From an uncultured delta proteobacterium (GTDB taxonomy: Bacteria; Desulfobacterota; Desulfobaccia; Desulfobaccales; 0-14-0-80-60-11): a DNA stretch of 64,000 nucleotides. The notes beneath the pieces are model-generated. The model saw only the letters and a list, made by a program, of their open reading frames with translations, searched no databases and was not told the DNA's origin. The number at the start of each line of letters is the position of its first letter. Positions within the stretch are counted from its first letter, which is position 1. Below are positions 8,236 to 39,907 of the stretch, piece by piece. A program made the translations under genes and the position numbers. The stretch is from positions 96,001 to 160,000 of the forward strand of contig CAWETI010000002.1 of the NCBI GenBank assembly GCA_963812015.1, in the 5' to 3' direction.

Positions 8236-8703
8236 GATGCCCTCATGCTTTTTCGTGCTGCCCGCCCTGCCTGGCGGGGGCGGCAACTTCTTATTTTCCA
8301 TACCGTGGCGTTGCAGCTCATCCAAGATCATCCGGCAGCCCCCGTTCACTCTCCCTTATTGAAGATTCGGACCTTTTCCCCCGAACTTAAATCCAAAGCG
8401 CCCCTTTTTTCCGCGCCACCCCGTATCATGAATGATTCAAGACACTTCATCCCATCAATTTTCCGCCCGATCCCGGGCCGGCTCGACCCTCCATGGCCAC
8501 TCGCTGCCGCGCCTGGCCGCTGGAGCACCGGATGGTTAAACTGGATAAAAATGGGGCAGTGATAGTTGGGCTAAAGAACTGAGTACCTGGTTGGGTAAAT
8601 GAGGGATATTTTCAGCAGGGTTTTCATGTCCCCCTTTTCTCAAGGGTGGCGGGAGGGCAGGCGGGTTCAGGGCGGCAGGACCCCCCCGAACCCGGGCGCG
8701 GCA

Positions 8704-9939
8704 TTACATGTGGTCGATGAGAGCCTGGCCGAACTCGGAGCACGACACTTCCCGGGAGCCCGGCAGGAGGCGGGCCAGATCGTAGGTGGCGATCCCGTCC
8801 TTGAGGGTCCGGGGCAGGCTCTGGTGGATATGCTGGGCGGCTTCACCCCAGCCGAGATATTCCAACAGCATGGCGCCGGAGAGAATCAGGGAGCTGGGGT
8901 TGACCTTATCCTGGCCGGCGTACTTGGGGGCGCTGCCGTGGGTGGCTTCGAAGATGGCGCAGTTGTCGCCGATATTGGCCCCCGGGGCCATCCCCAATCC
9001 TCCCACTTGGGCCGCCAGGGCGTCGGAGATATAATCGCCGTTCAGGTTCGGGGTGGCGATGACCTGGTATTCCTCCGGTCGCAGCAGCACTTGCTGAAAC
9101 AGATTGTCCGCCAGCCGGTCCTTGAGCACCGTCTTGCCGGCCGGGAGTCGGCCCTGGCAGACCGTGGACAGCTCGGCCTCCGAGATCACCCCCCCCGGCA
9201 ACTCCGCGGCCACTTCATATCCCCAGGTTTGGAAAGCCCCTTCGGTGTATTTCATGATATTGCCTTTGTGCATCAGGGTGACCGAGGCCAGCCGGTGTTT
9301 CACCGCGTGCTTCAAAGCCATGCGGATCAGGCGCTTGCTGCACCGTTCGGTCATGGGTTTGATGCCGATCGCCGCGGCAATATCCAGGGTGCAGCCCAAT
9401 TCGTTATTGAGAAAATTGATCAGGCGCTGGGCCTCGGGGGTGTTGGCGGCCCACTCGATGCCGGCATAGAGGTCTTCGGTGTTTTCCCGGAAAATCACCA
9501 TATCGATTTTTTCCGGTTCCTTCAAGGGGCTGGGCACCCCGGCGTAGTAACGCACCGGGCGGATGCAGGCGTACAGGTCCAGGACCTGGCGCAGGGTGAC
9601 GTTTAAGGACCGGAAGCCCCCGCCGATGGGGGTGGTGAGGGGTCCTTTGAGGGCCACCCGGTATTCCCGGAGGGCCGTCAGGGTTTCCACCGGCAGATAA
9701 CTGCGGCTCAGTTTAAACGCCTTTTCTCCGGCCAAAACTTCCTGCCAGAAGATGCGCTTGCTGTCGCCGTAGGCCTTGGCCACCGCCGCGTCCAGCACCG
9801 GCCGGGTGGCCTGCCAGATATCCGGGCCGGTGCCGTCCCCCTCGAGGTAGAGAATAATCGGCCCATCGGGAACCACGAGTCCGCCGCCGGGGCCGGCGGT
9901 AACCATCTCACCCTGTCCATGCGCATGCTGTGCCATCAT
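8704..9939 (-). CDS. icd: NADP-dependent isocitrate dehydrogenase
   Basis: [49 protein letters not shown] and [13 protein letters not shown]. Confidence 0.95.
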
Positions 9940-10075
9940 CGCCCTCGCTTACAATAATAACTATATATTTCACCCTATTTTTGCCGCCGACGCAACTAAT
10001 TCCTGGCCCCCCGGCCAACCCAGGCGCGCCGCCCCCCGCCCCGGCCCTGAACCTCGGATGCCTCAGAGCATGAGC

Positions 10076-10198
10076 AGCCATTGCCAACCCGGTTTTTTCC
10101 GTCACCCTGAGCGAAGCGAAGGGTCTCAACCTCCCCCATAAACGAGATTCTTCCCTGCCCTCAGCATGACCAGAGAGAACGCCGGGACGTTTTGCCAT
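10076..10198. repeat. MITE-like element B, copy 1 (CGTC-type REP core)
   Basis: ccgtcaccctgagcgaagcgaagggtctc...gagattcttccctgccctcagcatgac. Shares layout with 51810-51941. Confidence 0.55.
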
Positions 10199-11077
10199 CC
10201 CCCCCCAAAGCTGATTCTGCTATGCAGTCCATATCTGCAGCTTCTGCTATCCCGATGATAATTGAGGTATTTGGCAAGCTATCGATGCTCGGGCTTGGGC
10301 TCACATCCTATTCTGATGCCGTGGGGAAGGGTAGGAAAATCAGAAGATAGAATTAGGGAATTCCTTATTATAATTTTATCATGATAAGTTACAATTTACC
10401 ATCTCAAGAGCGGAATAAAAAGGTAGGGCGGGAAACAATGGCCAGGAGGCTCAGATCTCTGGGATTCGCCCGGTCTTTGGTCTTGGTCGCTTATCCCCTC
10501 GTGGCCGCGGGGACCAAAATTCAAGATAGCGCCTCGGCCAAATCTGCCCTACCTGGCCAAGTTACCCCGGCTCCCTCAACTCCAACTGCTCCAAATACCC
10601 CCCACACCGCGGCTTTCCGTGGGGGTAGAGCACGTTTCCCCGGCAGGTATTCTGGTGGCCACCAGCGACCAGGAGAAAACCTTTGCTCCTGATATTAAGT
10701 AAGAACGAGCATTTTCCCCAAGGTTAAGGGCAGGGATACCAATGTGAAGGCAAAGGCCTTTACCCCCCGTGGCCCCACCCTGGCGGCTGACCTGCCTCCA
10801 AGAGCGTTATCCGGCCCTGTCGGGATAAAAGTTATCCCAGGCCGGTTCTAACCTGTAGGCCCTTCAAAAGATCCGGAGCACCTCCGGGCTCCTGGAGTCG
10901 AGGCCGACGTGCCCCTGGACCCGGAACGCCTGAAGAGGCCAGGCGCATCGCCGGAAAGGAGGCCAGCCCGAAACTAGAAATCACCTTCATCCCGATTATC
11001 CATTGATTCTGGTCTGACCCCACCTTCACCCCTTGCTAGACGTGCGGGGGAGCCACCCCGCCGGTCAAGGAGGTCTG

Positions 11078-14000
11078 ATGCCTGAGACAAATCCGCCAAG
11101 ACTACTGATCAAGATGCCGCCCGCGGTGAGGGAGGCCCTGGCGGGCCAACCCTTGCGGCTGGCGGGCCATACCTTCCAGCTGCCTGTCTTGTGCCCCAAC
11201 GAAACTCTGGGGGCCCTGGCCACGGCCGCACCTGCCCCCAGGTGGTACGTAGCCGAAGGGCCGCCCGGAGCGGTTACGGTAGCTGAACTCTGGGAGTTGG
11301 CCCACCAGGCCCTGGCTGCCGAAGGCACCCCCCTGGCCGCGGCCGGCGTCTATATCGAGCCGGACCTGCTGCACCCCTGGTTTTACGATAATCCCTGCCG
11401 CACCGCCGGGCTTGGGGCCGCCCCGGTCGACACCTGCGTTTACAACCGCCAGGCCGCCGATTTGCCCCAAGGACCCGGGTTCGCCTGGCATTTGGGCCAG
11501 GATTTTTCCCAGCTCAGGGAGGCCCGGGACCAGGTAGCCGCCGCCGACCGGGCGTCGGTGCGCCTTGGCATCATGGACGTGGGCTTCGACTTTTCCCATC
11601 GAGCTATGCCGGAGGCATCGCAACTGCTGGTTGACCTGCAGCGCAACTTCGTGGACGATGGCCAATCGCCGAAGGACGCCTCCGATCCTTATCCAAGGGG
11701 GCTGTTCAAGAATCCCGGGCACGGCACCGCCACCATCGCCATTCTGGCCGGCGGCCGCTTGATCGGCATGGCCCCGCCCGCGGATACCAACGACTACCTG
11801 GGCGGGGCGCCTTTGGCCAAGGTCATCCCGGTGCGCATCGCCAGTTCGGTGATCCTGCTCTACACCAGCGCCTTTGTCAAAGGTCTGGACTACCTTATCG
11901 CCCCTTACCAAGACCCCGCTGACACCGGCGACCGGGATCAGGGCGCCGACGTGATCTCCATGAGCATGGGGGGGCTGGCCTCCAAGGCCTGGGCCGATGT
12001 GGTGAACCGGGCCTACGAGGCCGGGATTTGCCTGGTGACCGCGGCGGGCAATAACTTTTTCGGGACCCCGCAAACCATCGTCTATCCGGCGCGTTTTAAG
12101 CGCGTCATCGCCGCCTGCGGCATCATGGCCGATGGAAACCCGTATATTCGCGACAAGGTGCCGTCCCTTCGCATGGCCGGCAACTACGGGCCGGACAGCA
12201 AGATGGACACGGCCCTGGCGGCCTATACCCCGAATATGACCTGGGCCGAGATCAACTGCCCGACCATTGTCGATATGGACGGCGCCGGGACCTCTGCGGC
12301 CACCCCTCAGGTGGCGGCCGCCGCGGCCCTCTGGTTGCAAAAATACAAGGCTCAACTCCTGAGCCGGGCCCCTTGGGAGCGGGTCGAGGCCGTGCGCCAG
12401 GCCCTATTCGCCAGCGCTAGGAAGACCGACCCCGATTGCCGGAAGTACTTCGGTCAGGGCGTCCTCCAGGCGGCCGCGGCGCTGGCGGTGCAGCCCGCGG
12501 CGAAACTCACCACGACCCCGGCCGACCAGGTTTCCCTGCCGTTTCTGAGCGTCCTCACCGGGGTGGGGGTGGCCGGGGCCCCCGGCACCGAGATGCTGGA
12601 GGTCGAAGCGCTTCAGCTTCTCCAACGGGATCGGTTGATAGAAAAGACCATCAAAGATCCCGAGCTACCGGAGATCAAGAGGAAGGAGATCAAGGACTTC
12701 ATGGAGGCGTCCATCGCCAGTGAGCTGGCTTCCTCCACCTTGAAGAACTATTTTAAGGAGGTCTATATGAACAATTTCGCCAACGTCTCGTTGCCGCAAC
12801 AACATTCCCAATCACCGCCCCCGATAACCGAAAGAAAGGTCCACACTCCTCGTCCGGTGTGCCGGCGGTTGCGCGGTTTTGCCTTCGATCCGGAGATGTC
12901 CACCCGCCTGGAAACCGCCCGCATCAACTCGGTGGTGTTTGAGGTCCCCTGGGAAATGGGCCTCAAGCTCGGTCCCTCCGGTGAATATGTGGAGGTGATC
13001 GATCATGATCCGGCCAGCGGCTGTTTTTATGCTCCGGTGGATTTAAACAATCAGTTCCTCCTGGCAGCTGACGGGCTCTCACCTTCCGAGGGTGACCCCA
13101 AATTCCATCAACAAATGGTCTATGCCGTGTCCATGCGCACCATCAATAATTTCGAGATCGCCCTGGGCCGCAAGGCCTTGTGGTCCCCAAAGATGCTCGA
13201 CAAGGATGACCACCTATACGTTCAAAAGTTGAGAATTTATCCACACGCCCTACGAGAACGCAATGCCTACTATGACCCGGAGAAGAAGGCCCTGCTGTTC
13301 GGCTACTTCCCCGCCACTGCCGCCGATCCGGGGCAGCAGTATCCCGGCGGCATGGTCTTCACTTGCCTGTCGCACGACATCGTGGCCCACGAAACCACCC
13401 ATGCCCTGCTGGACGGCATGCACCGGAATTTCATCCAGCCAAGCAATGAGGACCAACTGGCTTTTCACGAAGCCTTTGCCGACATTGTGGCCCTGTTCCA
13501 GCACTTCTCCATGCCGGAGGTGTTGCGGCACCAAATCGCCAAAACCAGAGGCGACATGCGGACCCGGAACCTGTTGGGCGAATTGGCCCAGCAGTTCGGC
13601 CAAGCCACCGGCATGCGCGGCGCCTTACGCAGCGCCATCGGCCAGACGGACCCCAAAACCGGCCAGTGGAGTCCGCTAATCCCTGACCCCGCGCTTTATG
13701 TGACGGCAACCGAACCTCACGCTCGTGGAGCCTTGTTGGTAGCCGCGGTATTTGACGCCTTTATGTCGATCTACGAGATCCGGACCGCCGACCTTTTGCG
13801 CCTGGCCACCTCTGGGACGGGCGTCCTGCCCGGCGGCGCCATTCACCCCGACCTGGTGGGGCGCTTAAGTGAAGAGGCTGCCATGGTTTCCCAGCATGTG
13901 CTGAATATATGCATCCGGGCCCTGGATTATTGTCCGCCGGTGGATTTGACCTTCGGGGATTATTTGCGGGCCCTGATCACTGCGGACTACGATTTAGTGC

Positions 14001-14692
14001 CGGACGATCCGTACGGCTACCGAATCGCCTTTGTCGAAGCCTTCCGCCGCTGGGGCATTTACCCCCGGGACTTGAGGAGCCTGTCCGTCGACGCCTTGTT
14101 GTGGCGTCCAGCCTGGGAGGATCTGGAAGGTGACGATAAAGAGTCGGACCCGCTCCACCCCATATTGCTCAATTTGCGCGCCTTTGCCGAAGAATTCCGC
14201 TATCTCGAGTCCAGGAAAGAGATGTTCCGCCGCACCCGGGAATGGCGCAGAAAAGTGCATGGGGACCTGAAGCGTCTCTTCAAAAGCATTTCCAGAGATC
14301 AATGGAAACAACAAAAGCTCATGTCCGCCCTGGGGCTCGATCTGAAAGAGCCTTTTGAGGTGCACGCCCTGCGGGTATCAGACCGACAGGGTCCCGATAC
14401 CGAGCCTCGTCCCCCCAAAATTCTGCTGTCTTTGGTGCAGGAGCGCCAGGTGCCGGGTGATGCCGACGGGGGCGGTCAACCCTTCGTGTACAGCGCCGGC
14501 TGTACGATTATTGCCGACCAGCGGCAGGCCGCAGTCGATTACTACGTGAGCAAGAGCATATTCAGCGAGGGGAGGCTCGCTCGCCAGCGAACCTTCAATG
14601 CTACCTCAAGCCAACCTTTGGCCGCGCTTTACTTCGGCGCCAGCCCACTGACCGGTATGGCCCAGCGTTTTGCCATGCTGCATGCAGACTAG
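11078..14692 (+). CDS. S8 subtilase fused to a thermolysin/gluzincin-like (M4-like) metallopeptidase
   Basis: S8 triad IMDVG / GHGT / GTSAATP with oxyanion AAGN. C-terminal half has NAYYD, VAHETTH (HExxH), FHEAFAD (third ligand) and EPHARG. AAGGAGG RBS before ATG 11078. No signal peptide apparent. Confidence 0.85.
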   Translation: MPETNPPRLLIKMPPAVREALAGQPLRLAGHTFQLPVLCPNETLGALATAAPAPRWYVAEGPPGAVTVAELWELAHQALAAEGTPLAAAGVYIEPDLLHPWFYDNPCRTAGLGAAPVDTCVYNRQAADLPQGPGFAWHLGQDFSQLREARDQVAAADRASVRLGIMDVGFDFSHRAMPEASQLLVDLQRNFVDDGQSPKDASDPYPRGLFKNPGHGTATIAILAGGRLIGMAPPADTNDYLGGAPLAKVIPVRIASSVILLYTSAFVKGLDYLIAPYQDPADTGDRDQGADVISMSMGGLASKAWADVVNRAYEAGICLVTAAGNNFFGTPQTIVYPARFKRVIAACGIMADGNPYIRDKVPSLRMAGNYGPDSKMDTALAAYTPNMTWAEINCPTIVDMDGAGTSAATPQVAAAAALWLQKYKAQLLSRAPWERVEAVRQALFASARKTDPDCRKYFGQGVLQAAAALAVQPAAKLTTTPADQVSLPFLSVLTGVGVAGAPGTEMLEVEALQLLQRDRLIEKTIKDPELPEIKRKEIKDFMEASIASELASSTLKNYFKEVYMNNFANVSLPQQHSQSPPPITERKVHTPRPVCRRLRGFAFDPEMSTRLETARINSVVFEVPWEMGLKLGPSGEYVEVIDHDPASGCFYAPVDLNNQFLLAADGLSPSEGDPKFHQQMVYAVSMRTINNFEIALGRKALWSPKMLDKDDHLYVQKLRIYPHALRERNAYYDPEKKALLFGYFPATAADPGQQYPGGMVFTCLSHDIVAHETTHALLDGMHRNFIQPSNEDQLAFHEAFADIVALFQHFSMPEVLRHQIAKTRGDMRTRNLLGELAQQFGQATGMRGALRSAIGQTDPKTGQWSPLIPDPALYVTATEPHARGALLVAAVFDAFMSIYEIRTADLLRLATSGTGVLPGGAIHPDLVGRLSEEAAMVSQHVLNICIRALDYCPPVDLTFGDYLRALITADYDLVPDDPYGYRIAFVEAFRRWGIYPRDLRSLSVDALLWRPAWEDLEGDDKESDPLHPILLNLRAFAEEFRYLESRKEMFRRTREWRRKVHGDLKRLFKSISRDQWKQQKLMSALGLDLKEPFEVHALRVSDRQGPDTEPRPPKILLSLVQERQVPGDADGGGQPFVYSAGCTIIADQRQAAVDYYVSKSIFSEGRLARQRTFNATSSQPLAALYFGASPLTGMAQRFAMLHAD
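12755..12769 (+). promoter_or_regulatory. in-frame internal RBS + ATG between the S8 and metallopeptidase halves
   Basis: AAGGAGGTCTATATG, nearly identical to AAGGAGGTCTGATG at the main start and in the same frame. Confidence 0.5.
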
Positions 14693-14706
14693 GGAGGATA
14701 ATTGCG

Positions 14707-16161
14707 ATGCCTGAGACTGTGTCCTATCAAGTTCCCGCCGGGAGCAAGGTTCGTATCCGGATGTATCGCCAGGGGCTGGGCGATTGTTTCCTCCTCACCT
14801 TTTACGACAATAACGGACCCAATCATATCCTCATCGACTGCGGCGTCTTGCTTGGTACTCCGAACGGCAGTCAGAAAATTCTCCAGGTGGCTCAAGACAT
14901 TGCCACGGAAACCAATGGCAAACTTAAGGCCCTAGTGGCGACCCATGAACATTGGGATCATATCTCCGGGTTTTTCGACGCCGCCGAGGTTTTCGATCCC
15001 TTCGATATCGGGGAAATCTGGGTAGCCTGGACAGAGGACCCCAGCAACCCGACAGCCAAGAGCCTAAAGCGCCAGAATAGCCTCAAGCTTCAGGCCATCC
15101 ATCTGGCCCTGGCCCAACTGGCCGAGACCGGCGAGCCCCAGTTCCAGGCCTACGGGCAAGGGGTGGCAGGACTGCTCGCTTTCTTCGGGGGTCCGGCTGC
15201 AGGTGCCACCCTGGCCGCTTTCTCGGATAAAACCTCCCAGGCGATGGCCAAAGTGACGCAACGCCATCCGGTTCCCACCTATTGCAAGCCCGGTGATGTG
15301 ATCCGGCGTGATTGGCTGCCGGGCGTGGGGATCTATGTCATGGGGCCGCCGGAAGACCCGGCTATGCTCCATCTGATGGAAGGCCCGGTGGGCAAAGACA
15401 TGTACGGTCTGACCGGGGCCGACAGCGCCTTTGCCGCAGCCCTGGAAGCGTCGGCACTCGCCGCCATGGGGGAGGAGGCGGATCCAATCAGCGCCGGACT
15501 CATTGATGCGGCCCTGCCCTTCAATGCTTCTTTGCAATGGCACGATAAGCCAGGAAAAAATAGGATTCTGGAGGACCCACAGTTCGGACCACTCTATAAG
15601 TCGTATATGGCTGACGACGCCAGTTGGCGGCGCATCGATCAGGACTGGCTTCTTTCAATGGCCCGGCTGGGGCTCCAGTTGGACAACGCCACCAACAACA
15701 CCAGCCTGGTTCTGGCCTTCGAGTTCAGCGACACTAAGGAAGTCCTGTTGTTCGCCGCCGACGCCCAGATCGGCAATTGGAAGTCCTGGTTTACCATTAA
15801 GGCATTTGATGCCGCCGATCTCATGCGGCGCACCGTATTCTACAAGGTGGGACATCACGGCAGCCACAACGCCACCCTGAAGGAAGGCGGCCTGGAGGCC
15901 ATGACCACGCCGGGGTTGGTGGCCGCCATCCCGGTGGACGAGAATTTCGCCAACAACGTCAAGCACTGGCCGATGCCGGCGAAGCCGCTTTATGCCCGCT
16001 TGCAGGATTTGACCCGGGGCCGCATCTTGCGCGCCGATAAGACTTGGCCCAGCGACGCCGATCAACCCCCGCCGGGTCTATCGACCGAGGATTGGCGGGA
16101 CTTTACCGGAATGGTCCAACTGGCCCCGGATGGCTTGTTCATCGATTTCTATATGAAATAG
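14707..16161 (+). CDS. ComEC/Rec2-type metallo-beta-lactamase-fold hydrolase
   Basis: GLGDCFLL, LIDCG, THEHWDH, NNTSLV, LLFAADAQ and KVGHHGSHN. No TM segments. Confidence 0.85.
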   Translation: MPETVSYQVPAGSKVRIRMYRQGLGDCFLLTFYDNNGPNHILIDCGVLLGTPNGSQKILQVAQDIATETNGKLKALVATHEHWDHISGFFDAAEVFDPFDIGEIWVAWTEDPSNPTAKSLKRQNSLKLQAIHLALAQLAETGEPQFQAYGQGVAGLLAFFGGPAAGATLAAFSDKTSQAMAKVTQRHPVPTYCKPGDVIRRDWLPGVGIYVMGPPEDPAMLHLMEGPVGKDMYGLTGADSAFAAALEASALAAMGEEADPISAGLIDAALPFNASLQWHDKPGKNRILEDPQFGPLYKSYMADDASWRRIDQDWLLSMARLGLQLDNATNNTSLVLAFEFSDTKEVLLFAADAQIGNWKSWFTIKAFDAADLMRRTVFYKVGHHGSHNATLKEGGLEAMTTPGLVAAIPVDENFANNVKHWPMPAKPLYARLQDLTRGRILRADKTWPSDADQPPPGLSTEDWRDFTGMVQLAPDGLFIDFYMK

Positions 16162-16303
16162 AGGATGTTGGCGCCTAATGGACCTGTGGTCCAGGCCCAC
16201 TCATGGGGTGCTTGCCGTCCTTAAAGAGAGTACAGGTCAATACCAGAAGAACACCAGATAGTTTTCTCCAATCGCGGCTATTAACACATAGGAGGATCGC
16301 TTT

Positions 16304-18013
16304 ATGCCCAACGCTGACGACATCCTTTGGCTTAAGAAGCAGTTTCACCGGCAGATTAAAGCTGCGGTGAAAGACACCCCATTTAGCCTCGACATGCTCA
16401 CCGCAATCGCTTGCCAGGAGTCGGGTGAAATCTGGCCAATCCTTCGTAAAAAACCACTAAGCCTCGGGCAATTGCTGGAGTTGTGCGTTGGCGACACCAT
16501 TGACACAAGTGGTGGGCGCCAAGCGTTTCCGAAAACCAAGAGCGATTTGTTGGCCAAGCCGAAGGGAGAGCAGATGTTTGCTATCGCTCGGCAAGCCCTG
16601 GTGGACATGGCCCATTACATCAAGGGCTACCAGGCGGCAGCGGCAAACCCGGAAAAATTTTGCCATGGTTTCGGCATCTTCCAATACGACCTGCAGTTCT
16701 TCCTGGAGGACCCGGACTATTTCCTCCAAAAGCGCTACGCCGACTTTGATGCGTCCCTTGGGAAATGCATTGGAGAACTTCATAATGCCATGAAGCGGAT
16801 CCACTGGGATAACAAGACCACGCTCACGGATTATGAGATGGCGTGCGTGGCCATTGCCTACAATACTGGCGGCTTCAAGCCGGGCAGGGGACTGCAGCAA
16901 GGCTACAGACCCCCTGGGGGCAAGTACTACGGGGAAGAAATCTTTGCTTTGCTGCGTTTGTCAAAGACGGTGGCGCTGCCGGGCGCTGGCCCGGCGGCGC
17001 TATCCGCTCCCCAGCCTGGAAACGCGGCGGTACCGCCACCCACGCCGGTGGAGGCTACCGGGCCGTTTTACGAGGTGGATGTCCGCCAGGCACCCTTGCG
17101 CTTGCGCCGCGAGCCGCAGATTGACGCGAATGATCCGAACGCCAACGTGATGGCGCTGCTGCCTGACGGCCAGCCCGTGCGGGCCGTCAAGAACCGAGAG
17201 GTCAATGGCTTCCTGGAGGTGGAGACGAGCTTGTGGGGCGCACACCACCGCGGCTTTGCCTCCGCTCGGTATCTTAAGCCTGCTCCGGGCGGGGCCAAGG
17301 TGCCGATAGTAACACCGGCGCCGGCGCCGCCAAGCCGCGGCATCGTCGCGGTCTACATGCCAAGTCAGCCGGGGGTAGTGACCAGGCGTACCGACCCCCC
17401 CGACGCACATTCACTCAACGAACCGAACCAGCCGGGCCGCAGGGGCGCCACCCCTGACGATCTCCGCGCCGAGCTGGCGGCGATTATCGATTGGCTGGCG
17501 GTAGACGACGCCACCCACAGGCGCTACCAACCTGGTAAGAATACTTATTGCAACATCTATGCGCATGACTATTGCTATCTGGCCGGCGCTTATCTGCCTA
17601 GGGTATGGTGGACGCCGGGGGCCATCGAGAAGCTGGCCCAAGGGAAAGACGTTCAACCGTTTTTAGAAAACACCATAGACGAGCAGCGCGCCAATGACCT
17701 CTTCCGCTGGCTGCGCGACTTTGGCCCGCGCTTCGGTTGGCAGGGGACTGGCACCGTGAGCAAGCTGCAACTGGAGGTCAACCAGGGGGCGATCGGCCTC
17801 ATCGTCGCTCGACGCAAGGAGGACGGGAGGCCAGGCCATATCGTCGCGGTGGTGCCTGAGACCGATAATCACCGGGCGCGGCGCGACGCCGCCGGGGAGG
17901 TGATCGCACCGCTGCAAAGCCAGGCTGGATCGACTAATTTCCGTTACGGGACCAGACTCAACTGGTGGAGGGATGACCGATTTGCCGACAGCGCTTTTTG
18001 GCTGCACTCCTGA
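16304..18013 (+). CDS. putative peptidoglycan hydrolase: lysozyme-like domain + SH3b + CHAP/NlpC-like amidase domain
   Basis: IACQESG...GFGIFQYD...AYNTG (lysozyme/SLT motifs), LRLRREP...LPDGQPV...GFASARYL (SH3b) and TYCNIY...GHIVAV...QAG (Cys/His amidase). Pro-rich linkers. Confidence 0.65.
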   Translation: MPNADDILWLKKQFHRQIKAAVKDTPFSLDMLTAIACQESGEIWPILRKKPLSLGQLLELCVGDTIDTSGGRQAFPKTKSDLLAKPKGEQMFAIARQALVDMAHYIKGYQAAAANPEKFCHGFGIFQYDLQFFLEDPDYFLQKRYADFDASLGKCIGELHNAMKRIHWDNKTTLTDYEMACVAIAYNTGGFKPGRGLQQGYRPPGGKYYGEEIFALLRLSKTVALPGAGPAALSAPQPGNAAVPPPTPVEATGPFYEVDVRQAPLRLRREPQIDANDPNANVMALLPDGQPVRAVKNREVNGFLEVETSLWGAHHRGFASARYLKPAPGGAKVPIVTPAPAPPSRGIVAVYMPSQPGVVTRRTDPPDAHSLNEPNQPGRRGATPDDLRAELAAIIDWLAVDDATHRRYQPGKNTYCNIYAHDYCYLAGAYLPRVWWTPGAIEKLAQGKDVQPFLENTIDEQRANDLFRWLRDFGPRFGWQGTGTVSKLQLEVNQGAIGLIVARRKEDGRPGHIVAVVPETDNHRARRDAAGEVIAPLQSQAGSTNFRYGTRLNWWRDDRFADSAFWLHS

Positions 18014-18205
18014 TTTGGTCCGGAGGGTAACAAACCCCCCACGCGGAGTCTGGGATCCTGATCAGGTTTATCTTAGGAAAGACTTAAAGAAGCGGTTCAG
18101 AGGATAAATTCTAAAATGAGTTAGGGGCCGGTTAATCCAGGTTAATTTCCCGGATTCTTTTGAGCCAGGCTGTCGGCAAATTGCAGTCACAGGCAAGGAG
18201 GAACA

Positions 18206-19054
18206 ATGAAGACCACTGCTGCCCTGTTAGGAGCCTTTCTTGGTTGCTGGTTCATTTTTTGCCCGGTCCCGGGGTGGGCTCAAGCCCCGGAGGTTCCGAA
18301 GGCTACCGCACCAAGCCAACCAATTACTGAGCCCGCTACGAGTACCCCTGCGCCGAGTCCGCCAGCCAAACCCGGTGCATCGGCCCAGCCGGTGGCAGTC
18401 CCTCCCGGGGGGCCAGTCCCGCCGTCGCCAGCCTCTCCCGGGGGGGCAGCCCAGCCGGCGTCAGTTACTTCCCTGGAACCTTCGAAAGCCTTAAATGCAG
18501 CTGCTCTGGCCAAGGGGCTGGACTGGAACCTGATCTTGGTTCTGCTCCTAACTTTCGTTACGGGTGGGATGGGGGGCATCGTTTATGAGTTGCTCATCCT
18601 CCAGGGCAATATCGAATTGCCCCATAAACCTGACCAGGATGAGATAACTGAAAAGTTTCCCTACGCCATCCCCAAATTTCTATTTGATCTGGGGATTTTT
18701 GCCCGGGTTATTATCGGGGCCGCCGCGGCATTGGCCGCGCTTCTGGTCTTGACGCCAACTACAGCCACAACCTTGCTGGCAACTTCCTTAGTCGCGGGTT
18801 CCGCAGGCACCTCGGTATTCCGCTCCATCCAGGACCGGCTGTTGGCGGCTCTGGCTCAAAAGGACGCGGCCAATAAGGGGACCCAGCTGACCAAAATGAA
18901 CACCATTAACACCCAGGCCCTTGAAAAACTAAGCAGGCTCAAGACTGCTGCTGTCCCCCCCGCTACCGGAGGCAAAGGGCTCACCGGCGTCGGCCTAGAT
19001 GACCTGGATGAGATCGAAAAATTGCTGAGTGAGGCCAAGGGGCTGGGCGCCTAG
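18206..19054 (+). CDS. membrane protein: signal peptide, Pro-rich stalk, 3 TM helices, C-terminal helical tail
   Basis: Hydrophobic N-terminus ending GWA-Q, a P/A/S-rich region, and Gly-rich TM helices (GGMGG, IIGAAAA, LVAGSAG). Confidence 0.7.
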   Translation: MKTTAALLGAFLGCWFIFCPVPGWAQAPEVPKATAPSQPITEPATSTPAPSPPAKPGASAQPVAVPPGGPVPPSPASPGGAAQPASVTSLEPSKALNAAALAKGLDWNLILVLLLTFVTGGMGGIVYELLILQGNIELPHKPDQDEITEKFPYAIPKFLFDLGIFARVIIGAAAALAALLVLTPTTATTLLATSLVAGSAGTSVFRSIQDRLLAALAQKDAANKGTQLTKMNTINTQALEKLSRLKTAAVPPATGGKGLTGVGLDDLDEIEKLLSEAKGLGA

Positions 19055-19248
19055 CGGAACCTTGAATAAGCGCCGGCTACCGGAACTCTAACCGAAATGA
19101 CCGGCGTTTAACGCCTGCCCTCAAGCTATGGGAGGGATTTTAAGGCGGAATCTCGACAAGGGTTGCAAGATTAAGGACAGCCTCGGCTAAGGCTGTCAAA
19201 AATAAACCGGCCGCTAAGTTGGCGTAAAAACCGGCAAAGGAGCAGGGA

Positions 19249-20850
19249 ATGACACCGGCGACAAGTAAAATTGACAAAGTCATAGTTACTAATTTTTCGG
19301 CGCTTAATGCAAAGTACGGTAACCAGGGGGGGCAAAAGATTCAGACTGCGGTACAAGATTTAATTGCCGCAGACCAAAGCCGCGGCCTGGTTACCGGCTT
19401 TTATCGCCTGGATGACCTGGCTACTATGCAGCAGTTTAAGGTGGCGCCCGTTACCATCCCAACCAATCCGAAGCAAAACAAAGAGGCGGTCGATGCCGTT
19501 TACCGGGCCCTCGCTCCGGATTATATTCTCATGTTAGGCAGCATAGACATCATTCCGCATCAGGACCTGAAAAACCCTATCTTTTCGTCAGGGAATGATG
19601 CGGACGAATTTGCCTTCGGTGACCTCCCCTATGCCTGTGAATCCCCTTACATTCAAAATCCTGAAGATTTTTTTGGGCCGACCCGGGTTGTCGGCCGGGT
19701 GCCGGATATTACCGGAGCCAATGATCCCCAGTACCTGATAGATTTATTGAAAATCGCCGCGACCTATACGGAGAACGATGCTGAGCAGTATCGCCCGTAT
19801 TTCGGGATCTCGGCGGAAATCTGGGAACAATCAACCAGGTCAAGTACTTCTAACATCTTCGGGAATTCCCAAGGCCTCAAGACGGTTCCACCGCAAGGTC
19901 CAAATTGGCCTCCCGCCCTGTTGATTCAGCTGGCTCACTTCATCAACTGTCATGGCGCTCCGGCCGACTCCCATTTTTATGGACAGCCGGCCACCGGTGC
20001 CCAAAAATATCCCATCGCCCTCGATGCCACCAACCTGGAACAAAATATTTCTGAAGGGGCGGTGGTTGCCGCCGAATGTTGTTATGGCGCCCAGCTCTTC
20101 GATCCGGCCCTGAACGGCGGACAAAGCGGGATATGCAACACCTACCTTGGCAACAAGGCCTACGGGTTTTTTGGCAGCACCACCATTGCTTATGGACCTG
20201 CTGATGCCAATGACCAGGCTGATCTGATCTGCCAATACTTCCTGCAAGGCGTCTTGCAGGGGGCCTCGTTGGGAAGAGCGGCCCTTGCGGCTCGGCAAAA
20301 ATTCATCCATACTGCCAGCATGTATGACCCCTCCAATGTTAAGACTATCGCGCAATTCAATCTCTATGCCGACCCATCTATAACCCCGATCAGACCGCCG
20401 CTGGCGCCGACAAAGGCCTTGGCCCGGTTCGCCCCCATGAACCTGCGCCTGGAGAGGGTGGAGCGCCGTCGGGACTTTTTCAGCCGCGGCCTTGCCTTAG
20501 CCCAGAGCCAGCCAAGCCTTAGCAAAGATGTAAGTAAGAAAGAAGACGTGGTATTGGCTGCTTTGCATAAAGTTGCAGGTGACTACGGTCTTCGCACGAA
20601 AGAAATATTGACGTTCAACGTGAAAGAGCCGCCTATATCGAAATCTATGCCCCTTGGACTTGTGGCAAGGGAAACACTTCCCAGTCGCATACACATAATC
20701 TTCGGAACCACCGAGGACATGGCTAGGGAAAATACCATGAAGATGGTATCCGGGGAAACAAAGCTTCCTAATGTAGTGGGAATCGTTGCCCTGATTATCA
20801 AGGAAATAAACGGGACTATAGCTTCCGTCAAAAAAATCTTCAGCAGATAG
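19249..20850 (+). CDS. C25 (gingipain-like, caspase/hemoglobinase fold) cysteine peptidase
   Basis: ILMLG..IIP, GDLPYA, VGRVP, FINCHG (catalytic His-Gly), AECCYG (catalytic Cys) and NLYADP. Confidence 0.75.
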   Translation: MTPATSKIDKVIVTNFSALNAKYGNQGGQKIQTAVQDLIAADQSRGLVTGFYRLDDLATMQQFKVAPVTIPTNPKQNKEAVDAVYRALAPDYILMLGSIDIIPHQDLKNPIFSSGNDADEFAFGDLPYACESPYIQNPEDFFGPTRVVGRVPDITGANDPQYLIDLLKIAATYTENDAEQYRPYFGISAEIWEQSTRSSTSNIFGNSQGLKTVPPQGPNWPPALLIQLAHFINCHGAPADSHFYGQPATGAQKYPIALDATNLEQNISEGAVVAAECCYGAQLFDPALNGGQSGICNTYLGNKAYGFFGSTTIAYGPADANDQADLICQYFLQGVLQGASLGRAALAARQKFIHTASMYDPSNVKTIAQFNLYADPSITPIRPPLAPTKALARFAPMNLRLERVERRRDFFSRGLALAQSQPSLSKDVSKKEDVVLAALHKVAGDYGLRTKEILTFNVKEPPISKSMPLGLVARETLPSRIHIIFGTTEDMARENTMKMVSGETKLPNVVGIVALIIKEINGTIASVKKIFSR

Positions 20851-20858
20851 TAGGCGAT

Positions 20859-21101
20859 ATGGCCGAGTTTATCGGTAAAGTGATCAAGAAACCGTTTGGT
20901 ATTGGTTCCAAGAGCGAGCACGAAGCAGTCTTTCTGGAAACCGAAAATAACCAATATGTCCTGCGCCGCCAGGGGGGTAACCCTTTTTATGATGAGGCCA
21001 TGCAAGAAATCGTTGGCAAGACCATTCGTTGCACCGGTGTGGTCGTCGATTATGCTCTCTTGATTTCAGATTGGGCGGTACTTGAGGAGGGGGAAAAATA
21101 A
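20859..21101 (+). CDS. small hypothetical protein (80 aa, likely beta-barrel/OB-like)
   Basis: Starts 8 bp after the C25 gene. Alternating beta-strand pattern ending GKTIRCTGVV. Confidence 0.7.
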   Translation: MAEFIGKVIKKPFGIGSKSEHEAVFLETENNQYVLRRQGGNPFYDEAMQEIVGKTIRCTGVVVDYALLISDWAVLEEGEK

Positions 21102-21299
21102 CGGACAACAGGTTGAGCTTATATCGGAATCCCGCCTGGCACTAAGGCCTTTAAGGTCGTGCTGCGGAAATCATCCTTTGCCGGGTCCGATGGCTGGCCG
21201 CCAGGACTGGCCCAGGGAGGTAAAGGTAGGAATCACGGCGACAGATAAGATTGATGCATTCAAAATTATTGAAATTTAGACAAAGGAGGATAGCTGATT

Positions 21300-22466
21300 A
21301 TGAACTTATTTTATATTGCCATGGCAGTTTGGTTGTCGATGATTCTATCTGGATGTGCCACGCCGGTCGTTACATCAATAACACCAATAAGCTTTTATGA
21401 AAAGCCGGTTGAAAATAAAACCCCCCCCTATATGATTGTCGATGGTGTGCCTTATTTCTTACCAAAATCAGTGATAAATGTTGATATTACCTGGAATAAA
21501 GATCAGTATAATTGGACTGTTACCGTAGCGTCCGTGATTCAACCTGACGAAAAGTCCAAATACTTACTCAAAAGAATCTCCAACGCCTGGTTTGATGATG
21601 ATATTACTTTTGCGGTTGATCAAAACGGCCTTCTGCAAACTATGAATATCTCAACGGCGGACAAGACGGTTTCGTCAATTACCGATCTCGCTACGGCTGT
21701 TGGCAATATTTTTGCCTTTGGCGCTGGCTTAATGCCAATGGGTCCGGTTGCGATGATGAAAGGGAAAGCGGAGGAGCCCCCGTTCAAGGATATACTTTGT
21801 TCCTTTCATGGTGAATATGATCCCTTCAAACCGATTGAAAAAACGATACCAACTTTAACTAGTCCCGTGTTCCAATTATATGAAAAGCCCGTTCAAAAGT
21901 GGGAACAGGTCAGCGCGACTTTCGATATAAAGATCGAGCCTCTTGGCGATCTTCCTTTAACCGCCATTCCGGACCAGAATGAAATTGAAAAAATCCGTAA
22001 GATGGTCCCCTCTGCTGATGAAAGTGAATATGAAGAGATGCGTAAGGTTGCCAAGGATTCAAGCCAAGCTATTCATGGGATTGTCGTAAGGACTCCGGTT
22101 CCATGTAAAATAAGCATCACTAAGCACGAGCATGTTATTACATACACTGATAAAAAAGACCTGGATAGAAGTGAAACACACACTTGTACTCTAATGCTTC
22201 CGGATGTAAGGCGGGATTATATTTTGCCGATGAACCGCCGATATCTCGTTACGGATCAGACGAAAATCGCCTTAAAGGATGGCATGATCCAAAGTATACA
22301 GCAAGTCAGACCAAGCATGGTAGCCGGGGTTGTAGGTATTCCAAAAACAATTCTATGTGCGTTGGTTCCAATACCATTGCAAATCAGAAATACCCAATCT
22401 CAAAGCCTGCAAGCCATAGATACTTCTATTAAGACTAAGGCTGACATCAAGTTACAATCACAATAG
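21300..22466 (+). CDS. hypothetical lipoprotein
   Basis: Lipobox LSGC, AAGGAGG RBS, GVPYFLPKS motif. Visibly AT-richer than the host genes. Confidence 0.7.
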   Translation: MNLFYIAMAVWLSMILSGCATPVVTSITPISFYEKPVENKTPPYMIVDGVPYFLPKSVINVDITWNKDQYNWTVTVASVIQPDEKSKYLLKRISNAWFDDDITFAVDQNGLLQTMNISTADKTVSSITDLATAVGNIFAFGAGLMPMGPVAMMKGKAEEPPFKDILCSFHGEYDPFKPIEKTIPTLTSPVFQLYEKPVQKWEQVSATFDIKIEPLGDLPLTAIPDQNEIEKIRKMVPSADESEYEEMRKVAKDSSQAIHGIVVRTPVPCKISITKHEHVITYTDKKDLDRSETHTCTLMLPDVRRDYILPMNRRYLVTDQTKIALKDGMIQSIQQVRPSMVAGVVGIPKTILCALVPIPLQIRNTQSQSLQAIDTSIKTKADIKLQSQ

Positions 22467-23178
22467 CCATCTAACAGTCGAAGCAGTCTCTGGCTAGATG
22501 GTCGCCCGGTTGGAAGGCGCTGACGCCACGATGCTGCAAGAAAACTTGGTAAATTATAGCCTGGTCTTGGATGCAACAATAGACTGGTGTGGGACTTATA
22601 GTTCCAGATGGAGGACACCCCCGCTTGGTGATCATTGAAGTTGCCATTATCGATGTCTCCAGCGGAGTGAATTCGATTGACATCTAACCCTCTATTGTGA
22701 AGAAGTGATATCTTTGGGGCGTGTTCTCCTATGGCCAGTGTCGGGTCGATAGTTCTGCTATTTATGCGCTCATCAAGTGGGTCTGGAAGTGTTTCACTAT
22801 CCAGATCATACCCGCAACTTTTCCGGGTTTGGGGATAATTGCTGGGTTTAGCAAATAACTTGGAATTTCTCTATCTAGAAATCTGAACTGGTCAAAGGCC
22901 TCCTTTTCCTTTGGCTTCCCCTTATCGGGCGATGCTGTCATGGGTTCCTTAACCTCCGCAGCAGTGAAGCGTTCGGGTATTGAGGGTTAAGTATGTCCAA
23001 AACTCAGGGAAAAGGTGCTTTTCCCTGAAAATTTGTGCTAACATGCCGGTGACGAGGGGATTCGGCTTCAAGAACAGAAACTTTGGGTGATTTTCCCCCG
23101 GCACCGAGGTCCCCAAAAGCATGCTTGGACTAGGATGGCCAAGCTTGCCGGATAATTGCGGCATTATAGGGAATAAAC

Positions 23179-24645
23179 TTGAATCCTGCCCCAAACCGTG
23201 ATGCCACTGAAGAGCCCCTGTTGAACATCGTTTTGGCGACCTCACCGATTGATATCGCCTGGAATTCCGGATCATTCCCGCCCTTGGGACTCTTGTATCT
23301 AGCTGCAAATATAAAGAATCTGCCCGGTGTCCGGGTAAAGATCGTGGACGCGTTTTGCGAAGGGCTGAACGTGGACCAGACCGCGGAAAGGATTCTGGCC
23401 CTCTCCCCCGATGTGGTGGGAGTTTCGGTGATGAGCACGAAACTCGAAAACCTTCCCAGGCTACTGGGGAGGATCAAAGCAGCCCGACACGATACCCTGA
23501 CTTTGGCCGGTGGCCTTCACGCCACCCTCTTTGACCGTCTCCTCCTCAAAGAGATACCCGAACTCGATCTAGTCCTGAGGGGAGAAGCGGAAGAAAGTTT
23601 CTTGGAGCTGGGCAAACGCCTCCTGGCGGGGAAGGAAACTGCCGGTCTACCGGGACTGTCTTATCGGGCCCAGGGAAAAGTAATCCGGGGGGAACCCCAG
23701 CAAATTGAGGATCTGGACTCCCTGCCTTTCCCAGACCGGAGCCTCCTGGATTACCCCGGTTATGGGAAGCAATGGTATGGCTTCGAGCTTCCCCTCTTGC
23801 CCCGTTTCACCACCGCGTTCTCCTCCAGAGGCTGCCTGTTTAACTGCACCTTCTGCGCCGGCACCAAACTGAGTGGCAATCGGCTCAGAATCAGAAGTGC
23901 CGAGAACGTCTTGCAAGAACTGCTAGTGCTGTCCCAGGAAGGATACGAGTTTGTCATCTTCTTTGACGATAATTTCACCGGCAACGTGGATCGCCTCGAC
24001 AAGCTCTGTCACTTGATCATAGAACATATCCCCAACATGCGCTTGGCCTGCGCCGGGACCTTGCACCATGTACCGGACGCCACGTTAGATCTTATGCACC
24101 GGGCTGGCTTTGACCTGGTTTTTTTGGGAGTAGAGAGTGGCAGCGATGAACAGCTCAGACGCTACCGGAAACCCACCACGCGCAAACAGCTGGCAACCGA
24201 CATTATCCGGACCAAAAAAGCCCATATCGCCACCATCGCCAGCTTCATCACCGGCGGCCTGGGAGAGACGGATCAAGATCACGAGGCTACCAGGACACTC
24301 GTCTGGGAAGTAATGCCGATTATTGCGGAAATCAACCCGCTGATGGTCCATCCCGGTAGTTGCCTCTGGGATGAAATCCATGGCTCCCAAGAGCCTAAAA
24401 CCTTGAAGGAATCCGAGAGCCTCTTGGTTTCGAATTTTCCGGGGCAAATGGATAAGGCGACTTTAAAGTTCCGAGAGCGCGATTTCCGGAGGACCTTCCT
24501 CAAAAGCTGGCTGCATTGGCGGCGAATTTTTGACTTCCTGGATCTACTCAGACATAATCGCTTAATAGGAGGGATCATCAAGGATGTTTTCCGAACTCCT
24601 CAGACCCTCTTCATGTACTTGCTAAGGCAAAACTACCGTGAGTAA
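23179..24645 (+). CDS. cobalamin-binding radical SAM enzyme
   Basis: PPLGLLYLAA, GGLHAT, RGEAE (B12 domain), SSRGCLFNCTFC, FDDNF and GVESG. Confidence 0.9.
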   Translation: MNPAPNRDATEEPLLNIVLATSPIDIAWNSGSFPPLGLLYLAANIKNLPGVRVKIVDAFCEGLNVDQTAERILALSPDVVGVSVMSTKLENLPRLLGRIKAARHDTLTLAGGLHATLFDRLLLKEIPELDLVLRGEAEESFLELGKRLLAGKETAGLPGLSYRAQGKVIRGEPQQIEDLDSLPFPDRSLLDYPGYGKQWYGFELPLLPRFTTAFSSRGCLFNCTFCAGTKLSGNRLRIRSAENVLQELLVLSQEGYEFVIFFDDNFTGNVDRLDKLCHLIIEHIPNMRLACAGTLHHVPDATLDLMHRAGFDLVFLGVESGSDEQLRRYRKPTTRKQLATDIIRTKKAHIATIASFITGGLGETDQDHEATRTLVWEVMPIIAEINPLMVHPGSCLWDEIHGSQEPKTLKESESLLVSNFPGQMDKATLKFRERDFRRTFLKSWLHWRRIFDFLDLLRHNRLIGGIIKDVFRTPQTLFMYLLRQNYRE

Positions 24646-24841
24646 TATCCTTTAGATTTCTCGTCTGACTTCACCTGAGGCGAAGGTAAATCAGAGGCGC
24701 CCGACTGCTAGATAGTCTCAGCGGTGATCTCCTGGCCAGCCTCGGGGTAGCCCCGGATTATCCGACCATCGCCGCGGTTTGGAGATTTTTCAGGAAGCCG
24801 ATCAAGATGGCAAGCCTGTAACTGACCCGGAGAACCATATT

Positions 24842-26263: not shown

Positions 26264-27030
26264 TTATTTTAGGTGGGAAATGATTTCTGTCCGGTTAAGC
26301 GGTCTAGAGCGATACCTGCCCGGGATCATTAATATTAAATATATTGGGGTGGTCCAAAATCTCCTGTAACGTATACCCTCGGAATAGGCTAAGTTGTTGT
26401 ATTCGAAATAAATTCTGGAGACTAATATCGAAACCGAAAGGAACTTGCTGTAACAAAGCAAAAGAAAAGCAATGCGAGATAGATAGATTTGAGTCATTAC
26501 GGCATTCTCAGAATTGCCGAGGAATGCTTTGATCTTGAGGTTCTGCTTAATCCAACGAAAGAAGATTTAGATTTGTCAACGTTTTTTGAACAGACCACCC
26601 ACTTGGGTCGGAAATTTTTGGTTGGGCGTCGACCTATAAATCCCGTGCAGCACCCCTCGGTTATGGTGCGCCAGAGGATAAGCCGAGGCCACACGCATAT
26701 ACCACCAATAGAAGATTTCTGCTATATATCACCACTCTGTTAACCCAGAGAAAAGTTTTTGATAGCAAGACCATAGCTGCATCTCAAATCCTGCCGGCAG
26801 GTAAATTTTAGCCCGCCTTGTCAGCTCGAATCTGATTTTGATTTGATGCTAGTCAACTAACGTTCTAATTATTGCTTCTAAGGATATACACCTCTTCCCC
26901 CTTTCCACCCGTCTTTTCCGTGCCATCTTTCCCGCCCGTTCTGGCCTCCCGGCCGCCTGCCCTGCTACCCTCCGGTGAGTGGCACAAGCGTCTCGCCGGT
27001 GCGAAACCATCACCCTTGAGGAGTAATACT

Positions 27031-27420
27031 ATGGCGAAACATTACGGCCCCGCCCATCAGTCTGCCCGCTGTACCGTCTGTAATCACCCCTCCCGCCCTG
27101 AGATCGACCGCGCCCTGATCGATGGCGTGCCCCTTCGCACCCTGGCCGCCACCCATGGCCTCAGTGCCTCGGCCCTCTGTCGCCATACCCGGCATCTCCG
27201 CCATCAACTGGTGATCCAGCAGCGCCAGGCCGATCAGTCCCAGGCCTCCGCCTTCCTGGAAAAATTGGCGCTCCTGGAGGTCCGCCTGGACCGCCTCTTC
27301 CGCAAGGCCGAAGAGTCCCATTCCCTCCACGTCTCCCTGGGGTGTCTGCAGGAATCCATCCGCGTCCTCTCTCTCCGGGAGAAAGTCCGCCACTCCCTGG
27401 GTGGACCGGCTGCATGGTAA
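27031..27420 (+). CDS. small CxxCxH + helix-turn-helix protein with helical tail
   Basis: CTVCNHP...IDRALIDG-PLRTLAATHGLSASALCRH. GAGGAG RBS before ATG 27031. Confidence 0.65.
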   Translation: MAKHYGPAHQSARCTVCNHPSRPEIDRALIDGVPLRTLAATHGLSASALCRHTRHLRHQLVIQQRQADQSQASAFLEKLALLEVRLDRLFRKAEESHSLHVSLGCLQESIRVLSLREKVRHSLGGPAAW

Positions 27421-27427
27421 AATGCCG

Positions 27428-27553
27428 CGTCCCAAATTTTCCTTTAAAAAGTATTTAACACTTTTCGTAGGGGCGGACCCATGTGTCCGCCCTGATAGAG
27501 GGCGCCCACGCGGGTGCGCCCCTACAAAACTATGTCAAGGTACATCCGGGATA
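27428..27553. repeat. MITE-like element A, copy 2, containing an inverted GTAG REP doublet
   Basis: cgtccca...ttttcgtaggggcggacccatgtgtccgccc...gggcgcccacgcgggtgcgcccctac...tccgggat. Confidence 0.55.
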
Positions 27554-39855: not shown

Positions 39856-39907
39856 GCGAATACGCCCAGATTATTAAAAGCCGACGATGGTTGAGGAGAT
39901 TTTAAAT

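Follow-up and report, generated by a model that had tools for sequence, protein, structure and literature searches.

A thermolysin-like protease gene recurrently paired with a ComEC-like metallo-β-lactamase gene, probably a protease-gated pro-nuclease module, in a mosaic island of an uncultured Desulfobaccales bacterium

Tuck et al. 2025 (PMC12799240) showed that the ComEC-like metallo-β-lactamase (MBL) proteins of Hachiman, AVAST, Lamassu and DRT variants are pro-nucleases, in which two disordered insertions block the MBL active site and are cut by a partner trypsin-like protease. A caspase performs the same cutting in Canu, a system that joins a caspase-family protease, a small partner protein and an MBL nuclease and whose loci vary in organisation. 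The authors also report that further nuclease clades co-occur with proteases of ‘other diverse families’, left unnamed in the text. Here we analyse a stretch of 64,000 nucleotides from an uncultured delta proteobacterium (assembly GCA_963812015.1, contig CAWETI010000002.1, positions 96,001 to 160,000; hereafter the window), in which a gene for an S8 subtilase fused to a thermolysin-like (M4-like) zinc protease is followed directly by a gene for a ComEC-like MBL protein. By analogy with the published modules, these two genes (pair 1) probably form a protease-gated MBL pro-nuclease immune module, with a thermolysin-class protease as the variation. They comprise the following features:

11078..14692, forward strand: fusion of an S8 subtilase and a thermolysin-like (M4-like) zinc protease (Pfam S8 match, invariant catalytic sets, AGGAGG before the start)
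11558..12460, forward strand: S8 catalytic domain, residues 176–476 of the 1219-residue open reading frame (Pfam PF00082, 82.3 bits)
12827..14692, forward strand: M4-like module, residues 599–1219, thermolysin fold plus a C-terminal beta-rich domain (from the model and the stand-alone forms)
14707..16161, forward strand: ComEC-like MBL hydrolase, probably a gated pro-nuclease, partnered with the M4-like module (from neighbourhood, motifs and fold)

The reading frame of the first gene is open from a TTG codon at 11033, and its likely start is the ATG at 11078, which has AGGAGG upstream. The S8 domain exceeds the Peptidase_S8 (PF00082) cut-off of 21.8 bits almost fourfold, a PDB profile search finds subtilisins, and the catalytic triad (D182, H230 and S421) is invariant in 22 homologues. 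Equally invariant in 22 homologues are H786, E787, H790 and E813 of the second half, which make up an HExxH motif with a downstream glutamate. Beyond S8, no Pfam family was found in this half at E ≤ 0.01, and the PDB sequence profile search returned no M4 chain; its assignment comes from structure. An AlphaFold model of the M4-like module, built with 25 sequences, has a predicted local distance difference test (pLDDT) score of 82.1 and a predicted template modelling (pTM) score of 0.88. The first 26 Foldseek matches of this model in the PDB are all M4 or M36 peptidases (probability 1.00, target-normalised template modelling (TM) score 0.47–0.63), among them ProA, LasB, thermolysin, vibriolysin and aureolysin, and the C-terminal ~170 residues form an extra beta-rich domain in the model. 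The module has the fold and the HExxH-plus-glutamate zinc site in common with the secreted M4 peptidases (thermolysin, LasB/pseudolysin, ProA, vibriolysin and aureolysin), but differs from them in lacking a signal peptide, a propeptide and a Pfam M4 match and in having the additional C-terminal domain and an obligate MBL neighbour.

The family of S8–M4 proteins is large and extends across many phyla. In many genomes the M4-like module is a stand-alone gene of ~640 residues, and the C-terminal half is also joined to other N-termini, for example an AAA_16-type ATPase in a protein of 2069 residues. Against PHROGs, matches were limited to the S8 domain and a weak tail-protein match in the MBL protein.

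The MBL protein (484 residues) has weak Pfam matches and carries the motifs HxHxDH, D352 and HHGS, with H80, H82, D84, H85, D352, H383 and H384 unchanged across 34 sequences. Its model (pLDDT 83.4, pTM 0.85) has the ComEC MBL domain (PDB 9ic4) as its best structural match (E = 1.5e-9, target-normalised TM score 0.72), with the runner-up trailing by five orders of magnitude (E = 2e-4). The alignment with this 266-residue domain spans 437 columns; ~190 extra residues of the window protein fall into two regions (~112–188 and 218–330), in parts of which pLDDT drops to 49–65. Model confidence is lowest at ~160–171 and 231–320, and conserved aromatic motifs lie within these low-confidence stretches, namely an FF near residue 165 and an invariant P271-F272. 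The HxHxDH ... D ... HHGS motif set is thus common to the window protein and the ComEC nuclease domain; unlike the latter, the window MBL is a soluble, stand-alone protein outside any competence channel, and carries the extra residues. The PADLOC models LmuA (E = 2.5e-15), RTasMBL and Avs1a and the NCBIfam models Avs1a and 6A-MBL match only its first ~100 residues.

Gene neighbourhoods were scanned at 80 S8–M4 or stand-alone M4 loci, using one genome per species and up to 10 kb on each side, drawn from at least 488 confirmed encoding stretches; homologues of the island genes were counted at E ≤ 1e-5. Six loci were uninformative (contig ends), leaving 74 from many phyla. An MBL gene was present in 69 of these, adjacent in 66 and nearby in 3. 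The five loci without it all encode S8-fused forms (L026, L031, L037 and L040 are among the S8–M4 genes lacking an MBL), and every informative stand-alone M4 gene, 41 of 41, has an MBL partner. The sole other recurrent neighbour was a patatin-like lipase gene, found directly upstream in 12 of 73 loci. Across 37 pairs, the pairwise identities of the M4 and MBL proteins correlate with r = 0.65, a value reached in none of 999 permutations and not independent of phylogeny. Among the 400 other genomes of the phylum, a single one (G154) holds a full-length S8–M4 homologue, and no MBL gene lies in the 20 kb fetched around it.

Some further features of these loci deserve mention. Many of the MBL partners start with Lys/Ala-rich ‘AKKA’ tails of 20–60 residues (L020, L021, L022, L045, L061, L065, L093 and others) and the MBL of L095 ends with a Lys/Ala-rich tail, while the window MBL is without one; the tails resemble histone-H1-like tails, which suggests DNA binding. 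At three loci (L058 13828–14901, L076 13563–14540 and L091 3–956) a second, shorter MBL gene lies within three genes of the M4-like/MBL pair; these shorter MBLs belong to one cluster, and that of L058 is a full-length PADLOC PDC-M48B match (E = 4.5e-149). Two of the S8–M4 genes without an MBL, in L031 and L037, have the same three-gene cluster as a neighbour, on the upstream side in one case and on the downstream side in the other; it encodes an animal-haem-peroxidase protein, a protein of ~930 residues and one of ~215 residues (L031 4319–9826 and L037 12975–18521).

We compared pair 1 with the published modules as they are set out in the text of Tuck et al. (PMC12799240). As in HamMAB (Hachiman), Avs1a/Avs1b (AVAST type 1), Lamassu and DRT, an insertion-bearing ComEC-like MBL adjoins a protease gene, the two travel as a unit and the protease is fused to variable partner domains. 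In those systems the protease is trypsin-like and the nuclease gene lies upstream of it, whereas here the protease is a zinc enzyme of thermolysin type, fused to an S8 domain, and the nuclease gene lies downstream. The conserved insertion residues are aromatic here (FF and PF), in contrast to the isoleucines reported for the MBLs in that text. Canu (CanABC), as described there, resembles pair 1 in that a non-trypsin protease gene stands upstream of an MBL pro-nuclease gene, but no caspase is paired with the window MBL, and the C25-like gene of the window (p533, see below) has its own partner, p80. Further differences are that no HamB, STAND or LmuB-type sensor is present here and that the scores of the MBL protein fall far short of the family cut-offs.

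Because the window MBL fits the pro-nuclease pattern of Tuck et al., as far as that pattern is given in the text of the paper, the M4-like module would license the nuclease by cleavage. Pair 1 would then consist of a cytoplasmic thermolysin-like zinc protease and a ComEC-like MBL acting like the published protease-gated modules. Once an infection is signalled, the MBL protein would be cut by the M4-like protease within its low-confidence insertion loops; freed as a DNase, it would degrade DNA and stop the phage by killing or arresting the cell. Thermolysin-type (family M4) enzymes favour a bulky hydrophobic residue after the scissile bond, and the aromatic motifs of the MBL insertions would therefore suit cleavage by such an enzyme. 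The S8 subtilase may be an interchangeable second effector, as may the patatin lipase encoded upstream in other genomes; we read both as alternative or additional effectors and not as sensors, because S8-fused forms can lack the MBL gene and patatin accompanies others. The C-terminal beta-rich domain of the M4-like module is a candidate for sensing. Gasdermin–protease and similar death systems share the logic of a protease that frees a killing effector, and no gasdermin-like protein was recognised in the stretch by Pfam or PADLOC scans. In the literature search, gated nucleases were dealt with by Tuck et al. alone and no description of an M4/thermolysin–MBL defence pair was found, although a thermolysin-like clade may already be included in the figures of Tuck et al., which our comparison with their text does not cover.

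Several points weigh against this assignment. The MBL insertions were placed by alignment and pLDDT, not by superposition on the ComEC active site. The NCBIfam matches of the MBL protein cover residues 19–91 only and reach 34.7 bits against a cut-off of 420 for Avs1a (NF041809) and 30.9 against 220 for 6A-MBL (NF058524). No sensor domain was identified for pair 1, and the cleavage, the DNase activity, the defence role and the effector role of S8 are putative. The defence context is modest: when neighbours were drawn at random, 7 of 111 (at 7 of 55 loci) matched PADLOC at E ≤ 1e-15, a count that has no control set; these matches were RdrB, mad3, PtuB, a weak RT-protease, PDC-M48B and the generic, kinase-type PD-T4-6. 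Finally, the structures that rank next after ComEC for the MBL model are a phosphorylcholine esterase and further MBLs that are not nucleases.

The last two points bear on an alternative in which the M4-like/MBL pair is real and the MBL protein is not a nuclease but perhaps an esterase, a lactonase or a phosphodiesterase with a small molecule or the envelope as its target, with a role in metabolism, signalling or interbacterial antagonism. The phosphorylcholine esterase Pce ranks second among the structural matches and lactonases come lower, known defence genes are few among the neighbours, and peroxidases, sulfotransferases and TonB-type receptors occur there. Yet the ComEC nuclease domain is by far the best structural match, all PADLOC and NCBIfam matches of the protein are to defence-type MBL models, the basic tails of many partners suggest DNA binding, and neither the M4-like protein nor the MBL shows a signal peptide. 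We therefore regard a non-nuclease MBL as unlikely, though deserving of some weight.

Pair 1 is followed by five further genes in the same orientation:

16304..18013, forward strand: p569, with a lysozyme-like N-terminus, an SH3-like middle and a papain-like (Tox-PL/CHAP-like) C-terminus (ESM Atlas leads)
18206..19054, forward strand: p282, membrane protein, exported; signal peptide, Pro/Ala-rich linker and hydrophobic helices (sequence reading)
19249..20850, forward strand: p533, a cytoplasmic C25-like (clan CD, caspase-fold) cysteine protease (PF01364 in the family, invariant dyad)
20859..21101, forward strand: p80, a conserved 80-residue partner of p533 (present in 75 of 80 p533 loci)
21300..22466, forward strand: p388, a DUF4831-like lipoprotein with a G+C content of 0.42 (lipobox by reading, Atlas lead)

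A preliminary description of this DNA had presented the seven genes as one multi-protease system. All seven genes stand, as do most of its domain assignments: the open reading frames are co-oriented, with AGGAG-type ribosome-binding sites before six of the seven starts (that of p80 is weak); the three protease types have intact catalytic motifs, with the S8 triad, the HExxH-plus-glutamate set and the C25-like His/Cys residues all invariant in homologues; and the MBL hydrolase is ComEC-like in its motifs and in its best model match. PADLOC 2.0 and NCBIfam scans assigned the genes to no known system. PADLOC 2.0 gave partial matches only, for the S8–M4 protein (subtilase, E = 7e-6) and the MBL, and defined no system; at E ≤ 0.001 it matched none of p569, p282, p533, p80 and p388, the single match of p388 having E = 0.004. 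Signal peptides, the lipobox and the three transmembrane helices were read from the sequence by eye, not by a predictor, and on such reading none of S8–M4, MBL, p569 and p533 has an apparent signal peptide.

The unity of the system, by contrast, failed the gene-neighbourhood analysis that the same description had proposed as its test, in which only two recurrent pairs emerged. Homologues of p569, p282, p533, p80 and p388 were found in 0 of the 80 S8–M4/M4 loci, and homologues of the MBL, p569, p282 and p388 in 0 of 80 metagenomic loci scanned around p533 homologues, so that p282 and p388 are missing from all 160. None of eight loci with p569 homologues holds another gene of the island. At the closest S8–M4 genome locus fetched (L017, 63% identical), a housekeeping gene, for the methyltransferase PrmA, comes directly after the pair. 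Along the seven genes the G+C content runs 0.62, 0.59, 0.61, 0.59, 0.52, 0.48 and 0.42, against 0.57 for the whole window, and the intergenic gaps are 14 bases between S8–M4 and MBL and 8 bases between p533 and p80 but 142–198 bases at all other junctions. Because recurrent neighbours are limited to each gene’s own pair, G+C content differs sharply and wide gaps separate the units, the seven genes are a mosaic accessory island of at least five independent units and not one system. Taken as a whole, including the mechanism proposed for pair 1, this explanation seems to us somewhat better than an even bet.

The notion of a protease unleashing effectors remains plausible for the first two genes, where it matches the published MBL-nuclease mechanism as given in the text of Tuck et al., and is not supported for a cascade running through all seven. 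Such a cascade, in which three proteases would free nuclease, membrane and cell-wall effectors, could draw on the common orientation, the mostly strong ribosome-binding sites and the residence of all seven genes in a single strain-specific island. It could also draw on the metagenomic contig L097 (1–2874), which speaks against full independence of the units: there, 68 bases after homologues of p533 and p80 (79% and 77% identical), comes an M4-like gene that stands alone, has a ribosome-binding site of its own and is 63% identical to residues 598–922 of the window S8–M4 protein. This is the sole second case of a C25–p80 pair beside an M4-like gene, and its order differs from that in the window; the adjacency may reflect shared residence in variable islands, with a functional link in some lineages. 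Set against the empty counts at the 80, 80 and 8 loci, these features leave the seven-gene cascade extremely improbable.

The second recurrent pair consists of p533 and p80. On its own, p533 scores 15.6 bits against PF01364, below the gathering score of 23, but 22 of 24 members of its family match PF01364 at E ≤ 0.01 (best 4.6e-10), in the C-terminal part of the profile. H235-G236 and C277/C278 are invariant in the 24 family sequences, and a sequence profile search of the PDB gave no match for p533. The family is large. Its p80 partner is present in 75 of the 80 p533 loci, and the other five have at most 343 bases of contig downstream; a profile–profile comparison showed no relation between p80 and p533 (probability 0.3%), which speaks against p80 being a free copy of a domain of the protease. 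Other neighbours vary and include FHA-ABC transporters, neprosin and SpoIIE phosphatases. PF01364 likeness and a His/Cys dyad are shared with the gingipains (C25, clan CD); unlike these, p533 is cytoplasmic by sequence reading, stays below the Pfam cut-off and is always followed by the 80-residue gene. The literature search found no description of a C25-like/p80 pair. The two genes thus form a separate, widespread and undescribed pair, which may be another conflict module. At some loci the pair adjoins conflict-type genes, encoding a TIR-WD40-DUF4365 protein (L120 8914–12585), a CAP12/Pycsar-type TIR protein (L167 9837–10877) and a Tc-toxin-A-like protein of 2414 residues (L150 3645–10886).

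The combination of a clan CD protease and a small protein recalls Canu, which according to the text of Tuck et al. (PMC12799240) joins just such components to an MBL nuclease in variable loci. With the MBL gene 3 kb upstream of p533, and a C25–p80 pair abutting an M4-like gene in L097, one could picture p533 and p80 as a Canu-like partner of the island MBL, two proteases converging on one nuclease. We find this very improbable: no window-MBL homologue occurs in the 80 C25–p80 loci, none of the 23 annotated neighbour proteins of those loci is an MBL, and CanA is described in that text as MALT1-like with an Ig-like domain, which sets it apart by description from the C25-like p533.

This leaves p569, p282 and p388, single genes that are unrelated and travel alone. 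For p569 we found no Pfam, NCBIfam, PADLOC, PHROG or PDB sequence match. The preliminary description had called it a lysozyme–SH3–CHAP protein; this call agrees with ESM Atlas look-alikes, residues 287–569 aligning with a ‘Tox-PL’ cluster (TM score 0.90, normalised by that row), and stands as a lead, with Pfam and the PDB contributing no sequence match. Conservation in this family is unusually high: homologues 64–89% identical over the 569 residues come from no fewer than four phyla (Geobacter, Blastocatellia, Pyrinomonadaceae, Binatus and others). Among species-representative genomes the family is nevertheless rare, with none in the 400 other genomes of the window’s own phylum, and p569 had no match in viral contigs or phage records. 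In another class, 15 of 301 genomes gave matches, of which 2 are full-length, 4 N-terminal only and 9 C-terminal parts only. The eight loci with p569 homologues (up to 20 kb) have no common neighbour; on an Azospirillum plasmid, a full-length copy lies between a helicase-related gene and a helix-turn-helix gene.

The two halves of p569 are also found as separate proteins. Rhizobium plasmids carry its N-terminal domain under genes annotated as S8 peptidases (H8, H9 and H13), and at L221 (3866–5590) a peroxidase gene adjoins an N-terminal homologue. A holin–endolysin reading of p569 and p282 was considered and rejected, as a p282 homologue occurs in 0 of the 8 p569 loci. The p282 protein itself has a weak DUF4257 match, and its family is small, with 191 representatives at E ≤ 0.001.

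All seven genes lie in a variable segment of the chromosome, bounded and flanked as follows:

9940..27828, no strand: strain-specific island of ~17.9 kb between icd and a SIMPL-family gene
8704..9939, reverse strand: icd (isocitrate dehydrogenase), the left anchor of the island (Pfam Iso_dh, E = 4.8e-92)
6103..8349, reverse strand: PifA-like KAP-family NTPase gene on the other side of icd (PADLOC PifA and Pfam KAP_NTPase)

The right border is the SIMPL-family gene, which starts at 27829. That the genes were inserted after icd, as had been proposed, is borne out by two genomes of the same genus, in which icd and the SIMPL gene are near neighbours: the spacing is 360 bases in G009 and ~1.6 kb in G051, against 17.9 kb here, and icd is 89–93% identical in same-genus genomes. 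No window protein encoded between icd and SIMPL has a match at the icd–SIMPL loci of G009 and G051. Positions 9940–27828 are thus an insertion and a strain-specific island, because icd adjoins the SIMPL gene in the two same-genus genomes. Five relatives, of which three share the genus, one the family and one the order, yielded no p569, p282, p533 or p388; one of the five carries an S8–M4 homologue.

No integrase, tRNA or flanking direct or inverted repeats were found at the island borders; the sole tRNA found, a tRNA-Ala at 28956, lies away from them. Promoter and terminator scans gave 12 and 25 hits, near the shuffled expectations of 7.5±2.7 and 17.1±4.0. The PifA-like gene sits at the 3′ end of icd, and its product matches PADLOC PifA over positions 5–709 of 720 in the profile (E = 6.6e-113); its presence speaks for the defence reading of pair 1. 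Synteny with G051 is also broken left of icd, where lnt (window 4302–5819) is ~220 kb from icd in that genome; both icd flanks are therefore variable, since the break extends to the PifA-like side.

Downstream of the seven genes, the island holds two paralogous B12-binding radical SAM genes, followed by two small open reading frames without any family (23179–26263, forward strand, and 26872–27856). The best partial matches of the radical SAM genes are to BchE-, ApyD- and RiPP-methyltransferase-type models, all far below cut-offs, and together with the small frames they could be a peptide- or lipid-modifying cassette. Elsewhere in the window (39887–41436, forward strand), a gene for an outer-membrane efflux protein (OEP) downstream of a MacB-type ABC pump is read as the overlapping frames 39887–40483 and 40363–41436, which may reflect a frameshift or a mis-called start.

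The distribution of the island genes also bears on whether their products might be exported enzymes for nutrition or predation, set free by lysis or through an unrecognised secretion route. Relatives of thermolysin, subtilisin and gingipain are classically secreted, p282 and p388 show export signals on sequence reading, and p569 resembles a cell-wall hydrolase by its Atlas lead. This explanation is nonetheless quite improbable: S8–M4, MBL, p569 and p533 appear to be without signal peptides, the M4-like module has none of the propeptide families of secreted M4 enzymes, the genes are sporadic and strain-specific, with one full-length S8–M4 and no p569 in the phylum’s 400 other genomes, and strict pairing with an MBL is unexpected for feeding enzymes.

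These results illustrate that ‘interesting’ enzymes encoded one after another in the same orientation on an island do not necessarily make up a single system. If pair 1 acts as we propose, the proteolytic licensing of ComEC-like nucleases would extend beyond trypsin-like and caspase proteases to zinc metalloproteases, and serine-protease and lipase effectors would be swappable, widening a recently found immune principle. More tentatively, and with odds that we place short of even, the M4-like module might be a general sensor-protease that frees interchangeable death effectors (MBL, subtilase or patatin) and so define a new, phylum-spanning class of protease-triggered immunity, and C25-like/p80 might be another immune protease module not yet described. 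In any case, the C25-like/p80 pair is a widespread cytoplasmic protease module without a known role, and pair 1, with at least 488 encoding stretches in species-representative genomes, offers a compact two-gene experimental handle.

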